Assembly: GCF_003334785.1 (NCBI RefSeq)
Contig: NZ_QOWV01000018.1
Length of the DNA: 64,000 nt
Reading direction: 5' to 3' (one strand)
DNA from: Escherichia coli
Lineage (GTDB): Bacteria > Pseudomonadota > Gammaproteobacteria > Enterobacterales > Enterobacteriaceae
The translations under genes were made by a program, and so were the position numbers. Shown piece after piece: positions 2,751 to 25,974 of the stretch (position 1 is the stretch's first letter; every line of letters starts with the position of its first letter). The notes beneath the pieces were generated by a model. The model was not told where the DNA came from. It worked only from the letters and a program-made list of their open reading frames with translations, and ran no database searches.

Positions 2751-4081
2751 CACGCCAGTTTCAGATCCCGGGTCATGTTTTCCACGTTGTTTTCGTGGAT
2801 CACCACGTTGTCTTCGATACGAATGCCGCCGAACGGTTTCAGTGCTTCAATTTTCTGCCAGTTGAAGTGCTTGCTGAACTGCCCTTCACGCCACGGTGCC
2901 AGTAGCGATTCGATGAAGTAGATACCCGGTTCGATGGTTAACACCATGCCCGGCTGGAGAATACGGGTGCAGCGCAGGTACGGATATTTTGCCGGTGCCG
3001 CGAGGTGCGTACCGCTATCATCCTGCATAAAACCAGCGACGTCATGCACCTGCAGGCCCAGCGGATGGCCGATACCATGCGGCATAAACGGCCCGGTAAG
3101 ATCGTTTTCGACCATCGCTTCTTCACTCATATCGGTGATGATTTGATGTTTACGCAGCAGTTTGGCGATGCGCTGATGGAACTGGATGTGGTAATCCACA
3201 TAGCTGACGCCTGCTTTCATGGTGGCGATCAGCGCCAGTTGTTCATCATTAACGTCCTTCACCAGCTGCGCGTAGTCGTTGTCACTTTTTGCCGACCAGG
3301 TACGGGTCAGGTCAGCCGCATAGCCGTTATATTCTGCCCCGGCATCCAGCAGGAAGCTGCGCATCTCTTCCGGTGCCTGATGGTCCAGTTTGGTGTAATG
3401 CAGTACCGCAGCGTGTTCGTTAAGCGCCACAATGTTGCTGTAAGGTACGTCGGTATCACGATGACCGGTCGCGGTCAGATAGGCAATGTTGATATCGAAC
3501 TCGCTCATGCCAGAACGGAACGCTTCTTCTGCCGCGCGGTGACCGTTGACCGCCATTTTCTGCGCTTCACGCATACAGGCCAGTTCGTACTCAGTTTTGA
3601 AGGAGCGATAGTAATGCAGGTAGTCGATAACCCCTTTCGGGTTGATGTTGCTGGCCTCAATACCCAGTTGCAGCGCACGTTCCGGCACCGGACCGATATA
3701 ACCGATATTGCCGCGCGCAGCAGGCAGCAGGCTACCAATGCCATCGGCTTTCGGCAGCGCGATCACTTCCACATCTTCAGTCCAGAAAGAGGTCGGCAGC
3801 GGTTCGACGTTGTGCCAGTAATCAACCGGCAGATAGAACCACAGTTTCGGCTTGTTCACGCCATCCACCAGCAACCAGCAGTTTGGCACCTGAGTTACCG
3901 GCACCCACGCTTTGAATTGCGGGTTCACTTTAAACGGATAGGGATGATCGTCGAGAAAAACATTGAACAGCTCGCCGGAGTGAATAAGTAACGCATCCAG
4001 CTTGAAGCGCGCCAGCGCATCGCGAGTCCGTTCTTGTAAGGTAGCTATATGATTTTTATAGAGCGAGGCCAGTGATTCCAT
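2750..4081 (-). CDS. pepQ: Xaa-Pro dipeptidase (prolidase), M24 family (443 aa)
   Basis: ORF 2750..4081; [26 protein letters not shown]...; divergent from fadB as in E. coli. Confidence 0.93.
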
Positions 4082-19829: not shown

Positions 19830-22091
19830 TTACCCCCGACGCAAGTTCTGCGCCGCCTGCACCATGTTCGCCAGTGCCGCGCGGGTTTCTGGCCAGCCGC
19901 GCGTTTTCAGGCCACAGTCCGGGTTGACCCACAGGCGCTCTGCCGGAATGCGTTTTGCCGCTTTCTTCAGCAAGGCTTCAATCCATTCCACGCTCGGTAC
20001 GTTTGGCGAGTGAATGTCATAGACGCCAGGACCGATTTCATTTGGATAATCAAACTCTTCAAACGACTCCAGCAACTCCATGTCGGAACGCGAGGTTTCG
20101 ATGGTGATGACGTCTGCGTCCAGCGCCGCAATCGAATCCATGATGTCGTTGAACTCGCAATAACACATGTGAGTGTGGATTTGTGTGTCATCTTTCGCCA
20201 CGGCGGCGTTGATACGGAAGGCCTCTACGCCCCACTGGAGATACGCATCCCAGTCGCTACGACGCAGCGGTAAACCTTCGCGCAGCGCCGGTTCGTCAAT
20301 CTGGATGATGCCAATTCCAGCGGCTTCCAGATCGGCCACTTCATCACGCAGCGCCAGCGCAATCTGTTTGGCGATGGTTTCACGGCTGACATCTTCACGC
20401 GGGAACGACCAGCAGAGTATGGTCACCGGCCCCGTCAGCATCCCTTTCACCGGTTTGTCGGTCAGCGATTGCGCATACTTCGCCCACTCCACGGTAATCG
20501 GTGCCGGGCGGCTAATGTCACCAATGACAATCGGTGGCTTCACGCAGCGGGAACCGTAGCTCTGTACCCAACCGTTTTGCGTAAAGACAAATCCGTCGAG
20601 GTGCTCGCCAAAGTATTCCACCATGTCATTACGCTCGGCCTCGCCATGTACCAGCACATCCAGTCCCAAACGTTCCTGCTCAACAATGGCCTGCTTGATA
20701 TGTTCCGCAATGCCCGTGCGGTAGTTGTTGGCGTCGAGATTGCCCTTTTTGAAATCCAGACGCAGGGTACGAATTTCCGTGGTTTGCGGGAAGGAACCAA
20801 TCGTGGTGGTCGGCCACGCTGGCAGTTTAAAACGCGCACGCTGGGCTTCAGCACGCACTTCATAGACATTCGCACGCTGGCTGTCCTGGGCGGTGATCGC
20901 CGCCAGACGCTTTTCTACCGCCGGATTATGTACGCGGGTAGAGTGACGACGTGCCTGAATCGGGGCGCTCCACTCTGCCAGAGCTGCCGTGTCACCACTG
21001 TTCAGCGCATCGCGCAGCAGTGCCAGTTCATGGCATTTTTGTAGGGCGAAGGCAAACCAGCTTTTCACTTCTGCATCAAGACGCGTTTCCACGCTCAGGT
21101 CGATGGGGCTGTGCAGCAACGAGCAGGAAGATGCCACCCACAAATCACGTTTGCCGACAATGTCCTTAATTTGCGCATATTTCTCGGTAAGATCGGCGCG
21201 CCAGACGTTACGACCATTGATCAGACCCGCAGACAGCAACCAGTCAGAAGGCAGGCGCTTGTGCAGTTCAGCAACGTCATCTTTACCATGTACGAGGTCA
21301 ACATGCAGACCCTGAACAGGCAGCGCAGTAATCGTGTCGAGATTTGGCGTTACGCCTTCAAAATAGGTGGTCAGCAGCAGTTTCACCTGTCCCTGGAGCG
21401 CGTCGTAAGCGGGTTTGTATGCGTCCAGCCACGCCTGTGGTAGTTCCAGTACCAGCGCGGGTTCATCAATCTGTACCCACTCGATGCCGCGTTTCGCCAG
21501 TTCTGCCAGCACTTGCTGATAAACCGGCAGAATGTCGTTCAGCAGGCTCAGGCGGTCAAATTGTTCACCTTTCACTTTCCCCAGCCACAGCCAGGTAACC
21601 GGCCCCAGCAGCACAGGTTTCACCTTGTGGCCCAGCGCCAGCGCCTCGTCCACTTCGTCCAGCAGCTGCGTCCAGGTCAGTTTGAACTGTTGGCCTTTAA
21701 CGAACTCCGGCACCATGTAGTGATAGTTGGTGTTAAACCATTTGGTCATTTCCGCTGCCGCCGCAGGTTCGCCAGTCGGCGCACGTCCACGACCAATACG
21801 GAACAGGGTGTCGATATCTACCGAACCATCTTTGTTCTGATGACGCGCCGGAACGTTACCCAGCAGCAGACTGGTGGTCAGTACATGATCGTACCAGGCA
21901 AAATCGCCCACCGGCAGCAGGTCGATACCCGCTTGCTTTTGTTGATCCCAGTGACGAGCACGCAATTCACGCCCTACCGCCAGCAGTTCTTCACGCGTGG
22001 AGTTCCCCGCCCAATAACTTTCTTGCGCTTTTTTCAGCTCGCGACGCAGGCCAACGCGAGGGAAACCGAGGGTGTGATTCAATATTGTCAT
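19830..22091 (-). CDS. metE: Cobalamin-independent methionine synthase (753 aa)
   Basis: ORF 19830..22091; [51 protein letters not shown]... Confidence 0.95.
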
Positions 22092-22226
22092 TTTTTCTTC
22101 CTCTAATTATATGTAAATCCTATGGATTTTGAATTTAGGGAAGGCGGCAAGTTTATTCATCCCCGGGAGCTTACTGAAGTAAGTGACCGGGGTGGAGAAA
22201 CGCAGCCAACGCACCATAAATTTAAA

Positions 22227-22264
22227 AGACGAAGGATTTTAGCCGTCCAGATGTTTACACATCC
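22227..22264. promoter_or_regulatory. Candidate MetJ operator (tandem met-box-like 8-mers) in the metE/metR divergent control region
   Basis: Tandem 8-mers agccgtcc / agatgttt / acacatcc (22241..22264) and agacgaag (22227..22234) match the AGACGTCT met-box consensus at 5-6 of 8 positions. Both genes are known MetJ targets. Confidence 0.4.
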
Positions 22265-22327
22265 ATAATTGGCGGTTACTGTATATTCCTCAAGCGCAAA
22301 TTATTCATGCCGAAGTGAAGGACTTTC

Positions 22328-23281
22328 ATGATCGAAGTAAAACACCTGAAAACGCTACAAGCGTTGCGGAACTGCGGCTCGCTCGCAGCCGCTGCGGCGA
22401 CGTTGCATCAGACGCAATCCGCCCTGTCTCACCAGTTTAGCGATCTGGAACAACGCCTTGGCTTCCGGCTATTTGTGCGTAAGAGCCAGCCGCTACGCTT
22501 TACACCGCAGGGAGAAATCCTGTTGCAACTGGCAAACCAGGTACTGCCGCAAATTAGCCAGGCCCTGCAAGCCTGCAATGAACCGCAGCAGACGCGTCTG
22601 CGCATTGCCATTGAGTGCCATAGCTGTATTCAGTGGCTGACACCCGCGTTAGAAAATTTCCATAAGAACTGGCCGCAGGTAGAGATGGATTTTAAATCGG
22701 GCGTGACATTTGACCCGCAGCCCGCCTTGCAACAGGGAGAGCTGGATCTGGTAATGACGTCCGATATTCTGCCGCGCAGTGGCCTGCATTATTCGCCGAT
22801 GTTCGACTATGAAGTGCGTCTGGTGTTAGCACCTGACCATCCACTGGCGGCGAAAACGCGAATTACACCGGAAGATCTCGCCAGCGAGACGCTATTAATT
22901 TATCCGGTGCAGCGTAGTCGACTGGATGTCTGGCGGCATTTTCTTCAGCCGGCAGGCGTCAGCCCGTCACTGAAAAGCGTCGATAACACCTTATTGTTGA
23001 TTCAGATGGTTGCCGCGCGGATGGGTATTGCCGCGCTACCGCATTGGGTAGTAGAGAGTTTTGAGCGCCAGGGTCTGGTGGTGACCAAAACCCTGGGCGA
23101 AGGCTTGTGGAGCCGACTGTACGCCGCCGTGCGCGATGGCGAGCAGCGTCAGCCAGTTACGGAAGCGTTTATTCGCTCAGCGCGCAATCACGCCTGCGAT
23201 CATCTGCCGTTTGTGAAGAGCGCGGAGCGACCCACTTACGATGCACCCACAGTGAGGCCAGGATCACCAGCGCGCCTGTAA
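22328..23281 (+). CDS. metR: LysR-family transcriptional activator MetR (317 aa)
   Basis: ORF 22328..23281; [63 protein letters not shown]; helix-turn-helix at N-terminus. Confidence 0.94.
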
Positions 23282-24068
23282 TAAACGTTGGCCAGTGCGG
23301 CTGTTGGTGCCAGATAGCCAGGTTTACCAGCAGCCCTGCCGGAACGTGCATATTATTCATAATGCCCAGCGTTCCGGCGTCCACCTGCGTCGCGCCGTAG
23401 TTCCACATAAAGTAGCCAATCCCGGAAGCCACCACGCCAAGAAACACCAGAATGCCCCATTGCAGCGTGGTTTGCGGCATTTTCTGCGCATTTCCCAGCA
23501 AGAACCATGCAATCACTGCCACCAGAAACGCGCCAAGATAGAACCACGCAAAGGCGTTATGCTGTGGCATCGGGCGAGTTTCCATCAGGCGTTTGTAACC
23601 CACCATGCCAATGGCAAAAGTGATATTGGAGAGTTGCACCAGCAGCAAGCCAGTCCAGAAATGGTCGGTGACCTGATCATAGCGAATAATCCCGGCACCA
23701 ATCACCGCCAGCAAGGCGCTAAAGGCATAGCCCCAGCGCAGACGGCGCTTACTCATGATGTCATAAATCAGCGTGATGTAGAGCGGCGTCAGCACGGTGA
23801 ACAGCAGCAGCTCGGAAACCGTCAGGTAGAGATAAGCGCGGAAACTCAGCATATACATCACGCCAAGCTGCATCGCGCCCACCAGCATATACAGGCCGAC
23901 CGTTTTCAGGCTATTGCCACGGGTACGCAGAAACGGCAGAAAAACGAGTGCCGCCAGGCCAACGCGCACCAGCACCGCAAAATAGCTATCGACGTGCCCC
24001 GCAAGGTACTCGCCATAAAAGCTAAAGGAGAAGGCCCACAGAATCGTGGTGATGATAAGTAGCGCCAC
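23169..24068 (-). CDS. yigM: DMT/EamA-family inner membrane transporter YigM (299 aa)
   Basis: ORF 23169..24068; polytopic membrane protein [24 protein letters not shown]...; its 3' end overlaps the metR 3' end convergently by 113 nt. Confidence 0.85.
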
Positions 24069-24143
24069 AATGGAAAACTCTTTGATTAACGGGTATCCAT
24101 TGTAGCGAAGTATCAGGTTGACAACTGACCAAATAAAGAACGA

Positions 24144-24944
24144 TTACGATAAATAGAGTTTACGCAGATAATGCGGCACCGCGTCGTCGGCATTAGTACC
24201 AATCACTTCCAGCTCGGGATGAAGGTCTTTCAGACGCTGGTGCGCACTGCCCATAATGCAGCCTTTCCCCGCCATCGACAGCATTTCGGCGTCGTTCATC
24301 CCGTCACCAAACGCAATACAATCCTTCAGGCTGTAGCCCAGTTTCTTCGCCACCGCTTCCAGCGCATGGCCTTTTGAAACGCCGCCCGCCATCACTTCCA
24401 GACAGGTTAAGGTAGAGAAACTGACGTTGACGCGATCGCCCCAACGAGCGTTAATCGCCTGCTCCAGCGGCAGCAGTTGTTCATGGGAATCGCAGGTGAA
24501 GAACACTTTGCTGACGCCTTCCGGCTCCAGTAATCCAGGCTCATACAGCGCATATTGGAACACCGCTTCTTTAAAAAAGCGCATCTCTTCCGGGCGATGG
24601 CGATTCATAAACCATTCGTCGTCGCGATAAACGTTAGTAATGATGTCCGGATTGTCGTTGACTACGCCAAACAGATCGCTGGCAATGTCGCGATCCAGGT
24701 TATGAGCAAAAATCAGATTACCATCCAGATCGTGAACGCGCGCACCATTGGAGGTAATCATGTAAGACTTAATCTCCAGATTATCGCGAATTTGCCCCAC
24801 ATCAACGTGGTGACGACCGGTCGCAAACACAAAGTTGATGCCGCGCGCGGTGAGCAGCTTCAGAGTTTCTTTGGCGTAAGGGGATAACGTATGGTCGGGA
24901 GAAAGTAACGTGCCATCTAAATCAGACGCAACAACCTGGTACAT
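24144..24944 (-). CDS. yigL: Cof-type HAD phosphatase YigL (266 aa)
   Basis: The ORF track extends to 25070; the recognised start MYQVVASDLDGTLLSPDHTLSPYAKETLKLL (HAD motif I DxDGT) is the internal Met at 24944. Confidence 0.88.
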   Translation of the reverse strand: MYQVVASDLDGTLLSPDHTLSPYAKETLKLLTARGINFVFATGRHHVDVGQIRDNLEIKSYMITSNGARVHDLDGNLIFAHNLDRDIASDLFGVVNDNPDIITNVYRDDEWFMNRHRPEEMRFFKEAVFQYALYEPGLLEPEGVSKVFFTCDSHEQLLPLEQAINARWGDRVNVSFSTLTCLEVMAGGVSKGHALEAVAKKLGYSLKDCIAFGDGMNDAEMLSMAGKGCIMGSAHQRLKDLHPELEVIGTNADDAVPHYLRKLYLS

Positions 24945-24951
24945 AAGAAAT

Positions 24952-25974
24952 TTAAACCTCTGTAGAGCGGTTTCCGCTGGGTGAGTTATGCCTGTTGAAA
25001 AAATCAACGATGGCGTGGAGCGCGACTGAGCGCATTGCGTCCTTTTCAAAAAGGATCTCATGGTAAGCACCTTTAATTACCAACGGCCGTCCTCCTTCGA
25101 CAGGATGGCCCGCGGCGGTGCGGAGTTCACAAAAACGGTCATGCATGCGGTTATCCACCACGCGTTCCTCTTCAGCCTGCAAGAGAAGCGTTGGCGTGGC
25201 GTCATCACCCGCACCGGCTAACACCTGTTCGCCAGCCAGAATACTTTCGCGTACCCAATGGTAGGTCGGCCCACCGACGCGAATCGTTGGGTCATCAGCA
25301 TAGAAGCGTAAGTTACGTCGATATCGCTGTCTGCTGTGGGTCAGTACGTTGATAGCAAACGGCAACGCGCGCCAGCGCCCGGTGCCTATTGCATAGCCAT
25401 CACGGAAACGTGGATGCGCTTCGGCCCAGTTGAGGATCTGCCGTGCCATAAATGACGGCATACGAATCACGATCCCAAACATTGGCGCAGTTAGCGCAAT
25501 GGCGTCACATACACCTGGATGGCGTTGCAGAAATAATGTGGAGATCGCACCGCCCATCGAATGTGCCAGTATATAGCGTTTACGCCACGGACCGGGCTGA
25601 ACCTCCTGCTGCCAGAATGCCGCCAGATCATCAACATAATCATTAAAGCGATTAACATGCCCGAGATGCGGATCGGCTAACAGGCGACCGGAACGTCCCT
25701 GCCCGCGATGGTCGATGATTAAGACATCAAACCCCAAATGGAACAGGTCATAGGCCAGTTCCGCATATTTTACGTAGCTCTCAATACGCCCCGGGCAGAT
25801 GACTACCACCCGGTCATGGTGCTGTGCGCGAAAACGGACAAAGCGCACCGGAATGTCATCCACACCAGTAAACTCTGCTTCATCACGCTGACGCCAGAAA
25901 TCAGTCAGCGGTCCCATGGTAAAAGCAGCAAACGCGTTTTCTCTTGTTTCCCAGTCTTTTTGCTGCTGAAACAT
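24952..25974 (-). CDS. pldB: Lysophospholipase L2 (340 aa)
   Basis: ORF 24952..25974; alpha/beta hydrolase with GHSMGG nucleophile motif; MFQQQKDWETRENAFAAFTMGPL... Confidence 0.92.
   Translation of the reverse strand: MFQQQKDWETRENAFAAFTMGPLTDFWRQRDEAEFTGVDDIPVRFVRFRAQHHDRVVVICPGRIESYVKYAELAYDLFHLGFDVLIIDHRGQGRSGRLLADPHLGHVNRFNDYVDDLAAFWQQEVQPGPWRKRYILAHSMGGAISTLFLQRHPGVCDAIALTAPMFGIVIRMPSFMARQILNWAEAHPRFRDGYAIGTGRWRALPFAINVLTHSRQRYRRNLRFYADDPTIRVGGPTYHWVRESILAGEQVLAGAGDDATPTLLLQAEEERVVDNRMHDRFCELRTAAGHPVEGGRPLVIKGAYHEILFEKDAMRSVALHAIVDFFNRHNSPSGNRSTEV

Follow-up and report, generated by a model that had tools for sequence, protein, structure and literature searches.

Convergent overlap of metR and yigM (bioP) in Escherichia coli: a conserved 113-nt tail-to-tail overlap with almost no dual coding

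Introduction

Why do metR and yigM (bioP), two convergent genes of Escherichia coli that encode a LysR-family regulator and a biotin transporter, share 113 nt of coding sequence on opposite strands, and how much of the shared stretch is really needed by both proteins? The two genes lie in the metE / metR / yigM(bioP) / yigL / pldB region of the window, i.e., the whole stretch of 64,000 nt that was analysed (contig NZ_QOWV01000018.1) and to which all positions refer unless strain MG1655 is named. The metR/bioP overlap is already known, being annotated in RefSeq and reported by Cote et al. 2016 (PMC5120140), who also described that the deletion of metR disrupts the biotin-transport phenotype of yigM. 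The genes and the coordinates treated here are the same as theirs, and the analyses of codon constraint, conservation range and transcript ends were added in this study. The initial annotation of the window had assumed that about 37 codons are constrained for both proteins and that each transcript runs into the other gene, and both points are addressed below.

Results

Both genes are genuine and their stop codons bound the overlap

The features of the locus are as follows, with the evidence in parentheses.

22328..23281, plus strand: metR coding sequence, HTH-type LysR-family regulator MetR, 317 aa (ORF list, PRK15421, Pfam, PDB, RefSeq)
23169..24068, minus strand: yigM/bioP coding sequence, EamA/DMT-family biotin transporter, 299 aa, GTG start (ORF list, Pfam, TIGR00950, RefSeq, genetics of Cote et al., AlphaFold)
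23169..23281, both strands: tail-to-tail overlap of the metR and yigM coding sequences, 113 nt (ORFs, sequence, RefSeq)

Both MetR and YigM/BioP belong to recognised families and have recognised functions. MetR matched the NCBIfam equivalog PRK15421 over its whole length (741 bits, residues 1-317 of 317) and contains the Pfam domains HTH_1 (residues 5-63) and LysR_substrate (86-288). The PDB entry 5fo5, which is named MetR, is identical to MetR residues 1-92, and the LysR-family regulatory domain of PDB entry 4ab5 aligns with residues 87-296. YigM carries two Pfam EamA domains (residues 3-128 and 139-275) and matches TIGR00950 over residues 11-273; its product is named 'bioP: biotin transporter' in RefSeq, and Cote et al. 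2016 (mBio, PMC5120140) assigned it as the biotin transporter by genetic and chemical-genetic means.

The metR frame is closed by a TAA at 23279-23281, directly followed by a second in-frame TAA, and the yigM frame by a TAA at 23169-23171 on the minus strand. The two ORFs lie on opposite strands with overlapping 3' ends, and the limits of the overlap are stop codons at both ends, so the choice of start codon is irrelevant to it. ORFs, sequence and RefSeq agree that the overlap is real, stop-bounded and 113 nt long at 23169-23281, as the initial annotation had described it. The same two overlapping coding sequences are found in the RefSeq strains EPI300 and MG1655, whose records were inspected, and in the further matches listed; in MG1655, bioP occupies 4011076..4011975 and metR 4011863..4012816. 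A megablast search with positions 22300-24100 detected the locus in 5426 of 5426 complete E. coli genomes, with at least 80% coverage in 5424 of them.

Conservation of the overlap in Enterobacterales

To build the conservation set, species-representative genomes were scanned once with YigM, which gave 80 loci from Enterobacteriaceae with YigM identities of 81-100%. Distant YigM orthologues were collected by a representative search and by a second search seeded with P0123, and a word-indexed search with E. coli YigM returned close relatives only. In all 80 Enterobacteriaceae species loci metR was convergent to yigM and overlapped it by 68-116 nt, i.e., the overlap is shared by the orthologous pairs of other species and is not a strain-specific 3' extension. 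The alignment of 81 Enterobacteriaceae sequences contained zero indels along the 1741 nt from the start of yigM to the start of metR. In direct ORF counts, 71 of these 81 sequences had an overlap of 113 nt, 7 had one of 116 nt, 2 had one of 98 nt and 1 had one of 68 nt. The ORF lengths were very stable too, with 299 aa for YigM in 80 of 81 and 317 aa for MetR in 72 of 81.

Outside the Enterobacteriaceae, Yersinia has the same geometry as E. coli (YigM of 299 aa, MetR of 317 aa, overlap of 113 nt). Pectobacterium brasiliense has an overlap of 95 nt and a MetR of 311 aa, and a Dickeya-like contig has an overlap of 98 nt. Serratia marcescens keeps the order yigM, metR, metE without the overlap, its YigM of 286 aa and MetR of 314 aa being separated by a spacer of 36 nt. 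Erwinia toletana also lacks the overlap and carries a DUF1456 gene between yigM and metR, which encode proteins of 287 and 312 aa, respectively. In both species the two proteins stop shortly past the same conserved cores. Since the gene order is the same in these two species without an overlap, neither gene needs the overlap in order to function. The closest YigM homologues of Vibrio and Microbulbifer (292-294 aa) are located elsewhere and do not adjoin metR.

The Serratia locus exceeds that of Yersinia by about 95 nt, which sit exactly at the core junction (WVAP / FV..RP). Tandem duplication was considered as the route by which Serratia left the overlap, and in the alignment the similarity of the two core copies was too short to call. 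Yersinia, the Pectobacteriaceae and the Enterobacteriaceae share phase and ORF length, from which we infer that the overlap may be ancestral to these lineages and may have been resolved secondarily in Serratia and Erwinia; this assignment of ancestral and derived states is drawn from the distribution in few lineages. The identical length of the overlap over at least three families of Enterobacterales is an observation of its own, which counts against a simple run-on and could reflect selection for the overlap itself.

Partition of coding constraint between the two frames

In the shared stretch, the first codon positions of the two genes are opposite each other, the third position of yigM is opposite the second position of metR, and the second position of yigM is opposite the third position of metR. 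A silent change in one gene therefore always falls on the second position of the other, and the site of variation reveals which of the two proteins is protected. The overlap was divided by this means into three parts.

23169..23221: part under constraint for MetR alone, where MetR residues 281-298, which end the regulatory domain, face the stop of YigM and its tail 284-299
23222..23234: doubly constrained core of about 13 nt; MetR A299-E-R-P302 opposite YigM W279-V-A-P282
23235..23281: part under constraint for YigM alone, where YigM residues 263-278, in the last transmembrane helix, face the stop of MetR and its tail 303-317

Among the 81 sequences, YigM codons 283-299 showed a mean diversity of 0.286 at the second yigM position (the third of metR) versus 0.046 at the third (Mann-Whitney p=5.5e-5). 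The pattern was reversed in YigM codons 263-278, with a mean diversity of 0.434 at the third yigM position (the second of metR) versus 0.122 at the second (p=1.7e-4). The codons of the core, YigM 279-282 (WVAP) and MetR 299-302 (AERP), were almost invariant, with diversities of 0.0, 0.029 and 0.006 at the three positions. Both proteins are altered together in the core of Pectobacterium and of the Dickeya-like contig (YigM WVVK, MetR ASRP).

The dN/dS values were calculated by the Nei-Gojobori method, pooled over pairs without correction for phylogeny, and in the gene bodies dS approaches saturation (about 1.0).

YigM 1-262 (gene body): dN/dS 0.08
YigM 263-278 (constrained part of the overlap): dN/dS 0.18
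YigM 283-299 (passenger tail): dN/dS 2.29, with dS 0.07 versus about 1.0 in the gene body
MetR 1-280 (gene body): dN/dS 0.05
MetR 281-298 (constrained part of the overlap): dN/dS 0.06
MetR 303-317 (passenger tail): dN/dS 1.85

When the shared stretch is compared in this way with the rest of each gene, one frame has a dN/dS of 0.06-0.18 and the other of 1.85-2.29 everywhere outside the core, and dS is lowered about 6-14-fold in the passenger tails. Purifying selection in both frames along the whole shared stretch was not found. The double constraint on about 37 codons, as first proposed, is thus replaced by a split, in which, by diversity and dN/dS, no more than about 4 codons (some 13 nt) are invariant in both frames. 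The values above 1 in the tails are the expected artefact of a frame that is dragged along by its partner and do not indicate positive selection.

The C-terminal tails of YigM and MetR

The AlphaFold model of YigM (mean pLDDT 86.7, pTM 0.83) places the last helix at residues 259-284, and residues 284-299 form the sole segment with pLDDT below 50. Short forms of YigM occur naturally: P0075 (284 aa, 42 member sequences) ends in WVAPHS, and P0076 (285 aa, 66 member sequences), which is named for Salmonella enterica serovar Gaminara, ends in WVAPRSA. The orthologues of Serratia, Gibbsiella, Chania and Erwinia have 286-287 aa. The YigM tail 283-299 is a disordered and dispensable passenger.

The MetR alignment is near-perfect up to R301/P302 in all lineages and unalignable beyond, with the proteins ending at residue 311-318. 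The MetR tail 303-317 likewise appears to be a passenger, and it is probably disordered, as its sequence divergence alone suggests. The AlphaFold model of MetR was left unused because of its pLDDT of 38.8, obtained from a shallow alignment of 14 sequences.

Transcript ends

Given the stop-bounded overlap of the coding sequences, each transcript must reach at least 113 nt beyond the stop of its convergent neighbour and end inside that gene, as the initial annotation had deduced. A consensus scan found no intrinsic terminator on either strand in 22000-24400, with 2.6 expected in shuffled sequences. Single-sequence folds of the two overlap strands were unremarkable (z-scores of -1.6 and -1.75), and the consensus folds of 84 aligned overlap regions were weak on both strands (-7.7 and -8.2 kcal/mol over 111 nt), showed no compensatory pairs and had an alifold covariance term of only -0.4 to -0.7 kcal/mol. 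Neither a GC-rich hairpin flanked by A- and T-runs nor a conserved stem-loop, as expected of a bidirectional intrinsic terminator, was present at the junction. An 11-nt inverted repeat at 23173-23183 / 23220-23230 was considered as a conserved hairpin and was rejected, as it had no compensatory changes. Rfam gave no family in the overlap, and its sub-threshold matches were confined to the metE-metR intergenic region.

Published data point to Rho-dependent termination of the yigM-sense transcript in this neighbourhood.

23440 (MG1655 4011704 +), minus strand of the window: published peak of a region in which the yigM-sense strand shows Rho-dependent termination (Adams et al. 2021, eLife, PMC7815308, Supplementary file 2)

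The peak was converted to the window coordinate through the MG1655 record and is some 160 nt upstream of the shared stretch, at the coarse resolution given by the 800-nt windows of that study. The coverage of the yigM-sense strand upstream and downstream of it was 98 and 21 without bicyclomycin and 300 and 326 with bicyclomycin, which gave a Rho score of 5.07 (p=1.3e-12) (PMC7815308). These bicyclomycin data support Rho-dependent termination on the yigM strand. Neither gene has a Term-seq 3' end in the lists of Adams et al. 2021 (PMC7815308), and the metR strand has no Rho entry there. Because there is neither an intergenic spacer nor an intrinsic terminator, Rho-dependent ending of both transcripts is probable, which would make metR termination Rho-dependent as well. 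Ribosomes would leave each mRNA at its stop codon, and the RNA would continue untranslated as the antisense of the partner until, probably, Rho terminates it.

Discussion

The metR/bioP overlap is real, and it is most probably an ordinary run-on of two genes. In the reading that our results make likely, two unrelated functional genes are structurally locked tail to tail in an old overlap, and nothing points to a function dedicated to the shared stretch. The run-on origin, its polarity and the lack of a regulatory role are what we infer. The functional 3' ends of metR (to about residue 302) and yigM/bioP (to about residue 283) would abut and share about 13 nt, and each frame would run on through the antisense of its partner to the first stop, which would add a passenger tail of 15-17 residues to each protein. 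The antisense frame read by the YigM tail contains 8 stops in the 317 codons of metR, with open runs of 17-65 codons, and the frame read by the MetR tail contains 16 stops in the 299 codons of yigM. With so few stops in the antisense frames, tails of 15-17 codons are expected by chance once the cores abut.

The persistence of the geometry can be explained in a similar way. The MetR stop is the antisense of YigM F262-I263 and the YigM stop is the antisense of MetR F281-I282, and both Phe-Ile pairs are conserved. When the ATT of YigM I263 becomes ATC, which is synonymous there, the MetR stop changes from TAA to TGA; stops of both types occur. As the stops lie inside conserved codons of the partner, and indels would cause a frameshift in or damage a core, the geometry is frozen, and no selection for the overlap is needed.

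The other readings of the locus differ in what they ask of the shared 113 nt. That one of the genes really ends earlier, and the overlap is an error of annotation or sequencing, would be in line with the survey of Palleja et al. 2008 (PMC2478687), in which overlaps longer than 60 bp can be real only when they are convergent and, among 178 such convergent overlaps, 124 were 3'-extension misannotations and 54 were credible. For metR/yigM this is extremely improbable, because the same stops and the same frames recur in 84 independent genomes with no indel, both conserved cores extend into the shared region, and a metR deletion that cuts the last 30 codons of YigM abolishes BioP function (PMC5120140). 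The sequencing error or frameshift that the initial annotation had named as a ground for refuting the overlap is ruled out by these comparative data. If instead both C-terminal tails were functional, with, for instance, a cytoplasmic, Arg/Asp-rich tail in YigM and a Pro-rich tail in MetR, the 37 codons would be truly dual-coding. The great stability of both ORF lengths and the coverage of all 317 positions by the NCBIfam MetR model speak for functional tails, but the length stability is explained by the stops that sit in conserved partner codons, and a dN/dS above 1 with a strongly lowered dS in each tail is the mark of a frame dragged by its partner. YigM 284-299 is moreover modelled as disordered and is absent from the natural orthologues of 284-287 aa (Serratia, Erwinia and the Salmonella lineage), while MetR tails cannot be aligned between overlapping and non-overlapping species. 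Functional tails are thus improbable.

A further reading is a regulatory one. Convergent transcription could act as an excludon or cis-antisense device, in which polymerase collisions or RNA duplexes couple the methionine regulator to the biotin transporter. Biotin synthesis uses S-adenosylmethionine at the BioC, BioA and BioB steps, and as it consumes S-adenosylmethionine, a physiological link between metR and bioP is conceivable. The two mRNAs are complementary over at least 113 nt with no terminator separating the genes, and the order yigM-metR-metE persists together with the overlap in Enterobacteriaceae, Pectobacteriaceae and Yersinia. Antisense regulation has a precedent in E. coli at the convergent genes arfA and mscL (PMC10070815), and a collision-based model of termination has been proposed for convergent pairs (10.1101/2022.10.23.513370). 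Yet Serratia and Erwinia toletana are syntenic and have lost, or never had, the overlap; neither a conserved RNA structure nor a compensatory change is present in it; and the substitution pattern is wholly explained by protein constraint, one partner at a time. Coverage of the yigM strand is also low (98 reads per 800 nt), and collisions would be rare on the assumption that metR is likewise weakly transcribed. A cis-antisense device of this kind is therefore unlikely, and the stronger form of the idea, in which the frozen 113-nt overlap is a conserved cis-antisense switch between metR (methionine and S-adenosylmethionine supply) and bioP (biotin uptake) that was lost in Serratia and Erwinia, is less likely still.

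Taken as a run-on of two genes, the overlap resembles the long convergent overlaps of Palleja et al. (PMC2478687) in being tail-to-tail and longer than 60 nt, and in having well-characterised genes and stop-defined ends. In that paper, and in Rogozin et al. 2002 as cited there, conserved overlaps of this kind come about when a stop or spacer is lost and the frame runs on to the following stop. The credible cases of Palleja et al. are mostly conserved in very close species, whereas the metR/yigM geometry is identical from Escherichia to Yersinia. The arfA/mscL pair (PMC10070815) is likewise tail-to-tail in Enterobacterales and has an extended complementary 3' region; there, however, the 3' UTR of mscL lies over the arfA coding sequence and regulation was shown experimentally, whereas in metR/yigM coding sequence lies over coding sequence and the arrangement is known from sequence. 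The bidirectional-terminator class of the Liu laboratory (Ju et al. 2019, after the account in 10.1101/2022.10.23.513370) comprises overlapping terminators between convergent E. coli genes that likewise lack classical intrinsic terminators. As that source describes them, these sites are intergenic, need a stem-loop and are Rho-independent, while in metR/yigM both an intergenic space and a conserved stem-loop are missing, and the yigM strand is Rho-dependent by the bicyclomycin data.

The overlap also explains a published phenotype. The metR deletion of Cote et al. keeps the last 18 nt before the stop and removes the window positions up to 23260. It thereby removes YigM from about codon 270 on, i.e., half of helix 10, which explains the loss of BioP, and this loss fits helix 10 of YigM being essential. 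Their yigM deletion primer, on the other hand, ends just outside the overlap and leaves it intact (PMC5120140).

The metR/bioP overlap opens no long-standing question, and its main value is practical. It is a clean textbook case of a long convergent overlap that persists with almost no real dual coding, in which the dispensable tail of each protein is the antisense read-out of the essential end of the other. In overlaps of this type, a tail dN/dS above 1 is an artefact of the overlap and is not evidence of positive selection. A full ΔyigM allele made by the standard Keio deletion design would presumably cut MetR after about residue 287. Standard deletion of either metR or yigM harms the other gene, and published ΔmetR strains lose biotin uptake (PMC5120140). 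Because such deletions hit both genes, the phenotypes of metR or yigM need to be studied with overlap-aware alleles.

Sequence at the two stop codons

An 8-nt perfect inverted repeat, CGTTTATT at window 23166-23173 and AATAAACG at 23280-23287, lies exactly over the yigM and metR stop codons. Each of these stops, read on the opposite strand, falls in the codons TTT ATT for a Phe-Ile pair of the partner protein, and because of this the metR and yigM mRNAs both end in ..AAUAAACG. The sequence comparison showed that the metR stop of Yersinia is without the 8-mer found at the E. coli stops, so that the repeat looks like a coincidence at the level of E. coli.

Divergent records and the yigL start

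Among the megablast matches listed, which were spread over ranks, the lowest was that of E. coli strain Z135-6 (NZ_CP159632.1 2012557-2014436), with a query coverage of only 39% in two pieces. Its annotation, [quoted passage not shown], suggests that metR is disrupted or rearranged in this strain. In the same search of E. coli genomes, the query matched one place on a plasmid, and a few genomes had two matching places. The record titled Chryseobacterium sp. 18061 (CACSKA010000013.1) carried a typical Enterobacteriaceae yigM/metR locus with a YigM identity of 83% and a metR/yigM overlap of 113 nt, and this assembly is probably contaminated or mislabelled. The yigL ORF at window 24144-25070 on the minus strand was called mechanically as 308 aa from GTG, as compared to 266 aa (801 nt) in RefSeq; the longer ORF is merely an in-frame start farther upstream, and the sequence itself holds no discrepancy.

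Transcript ends around the locus

Two Rfam families, the Yersinia sRNA Ysr49 and the Vibrio antisense RNA V_AS5, matched below threshold within the metE-metR intergenic region, with about 27 bits where the gathering cut-offs are about 95:
Window 22113-22287 (+) and about 22156 (-), sub-threshold matches to Ysr49 and V_AS5

Adams et al. (2021, PMC7815308) reported a Term-seq 3' end at MG1655 4012988 (+), with the metE start 65 nt downstream, and this end may mark a short metE RNA derived from the 5'-UTR. In the same study, the stretch preceding the Rho site of yigM was covered three-fold more deeply with bicyclomycin, at 300 as compared to 98:
MG1655 4010904-4011704 (+), roughly window 23440-24240 (-), region of raised coverage

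This increase hints at additional Rho-dependent termination before that site, either within pldB-yigL or where yigM begins.

The relatives that keep the gene order without the overlap have stem-loops in the spacer between yigM and metR, which in Erwinia toletana additionally holds an inserted DUF1456 gene:
Serratia marcescens locus 3362-3397, yigM-metR spacer with a stem-loop, GTGGGCCA..TGGCCCGC
Erwinia toletana locus 3365-3976, yigM-metR spacer with a stem-loop past the yigM stop, AGCGGAGCGG..CCGCTCCGCT

These stem-loops of Serratia and Erwinia may be the terminators that are missing from the overlapping species.
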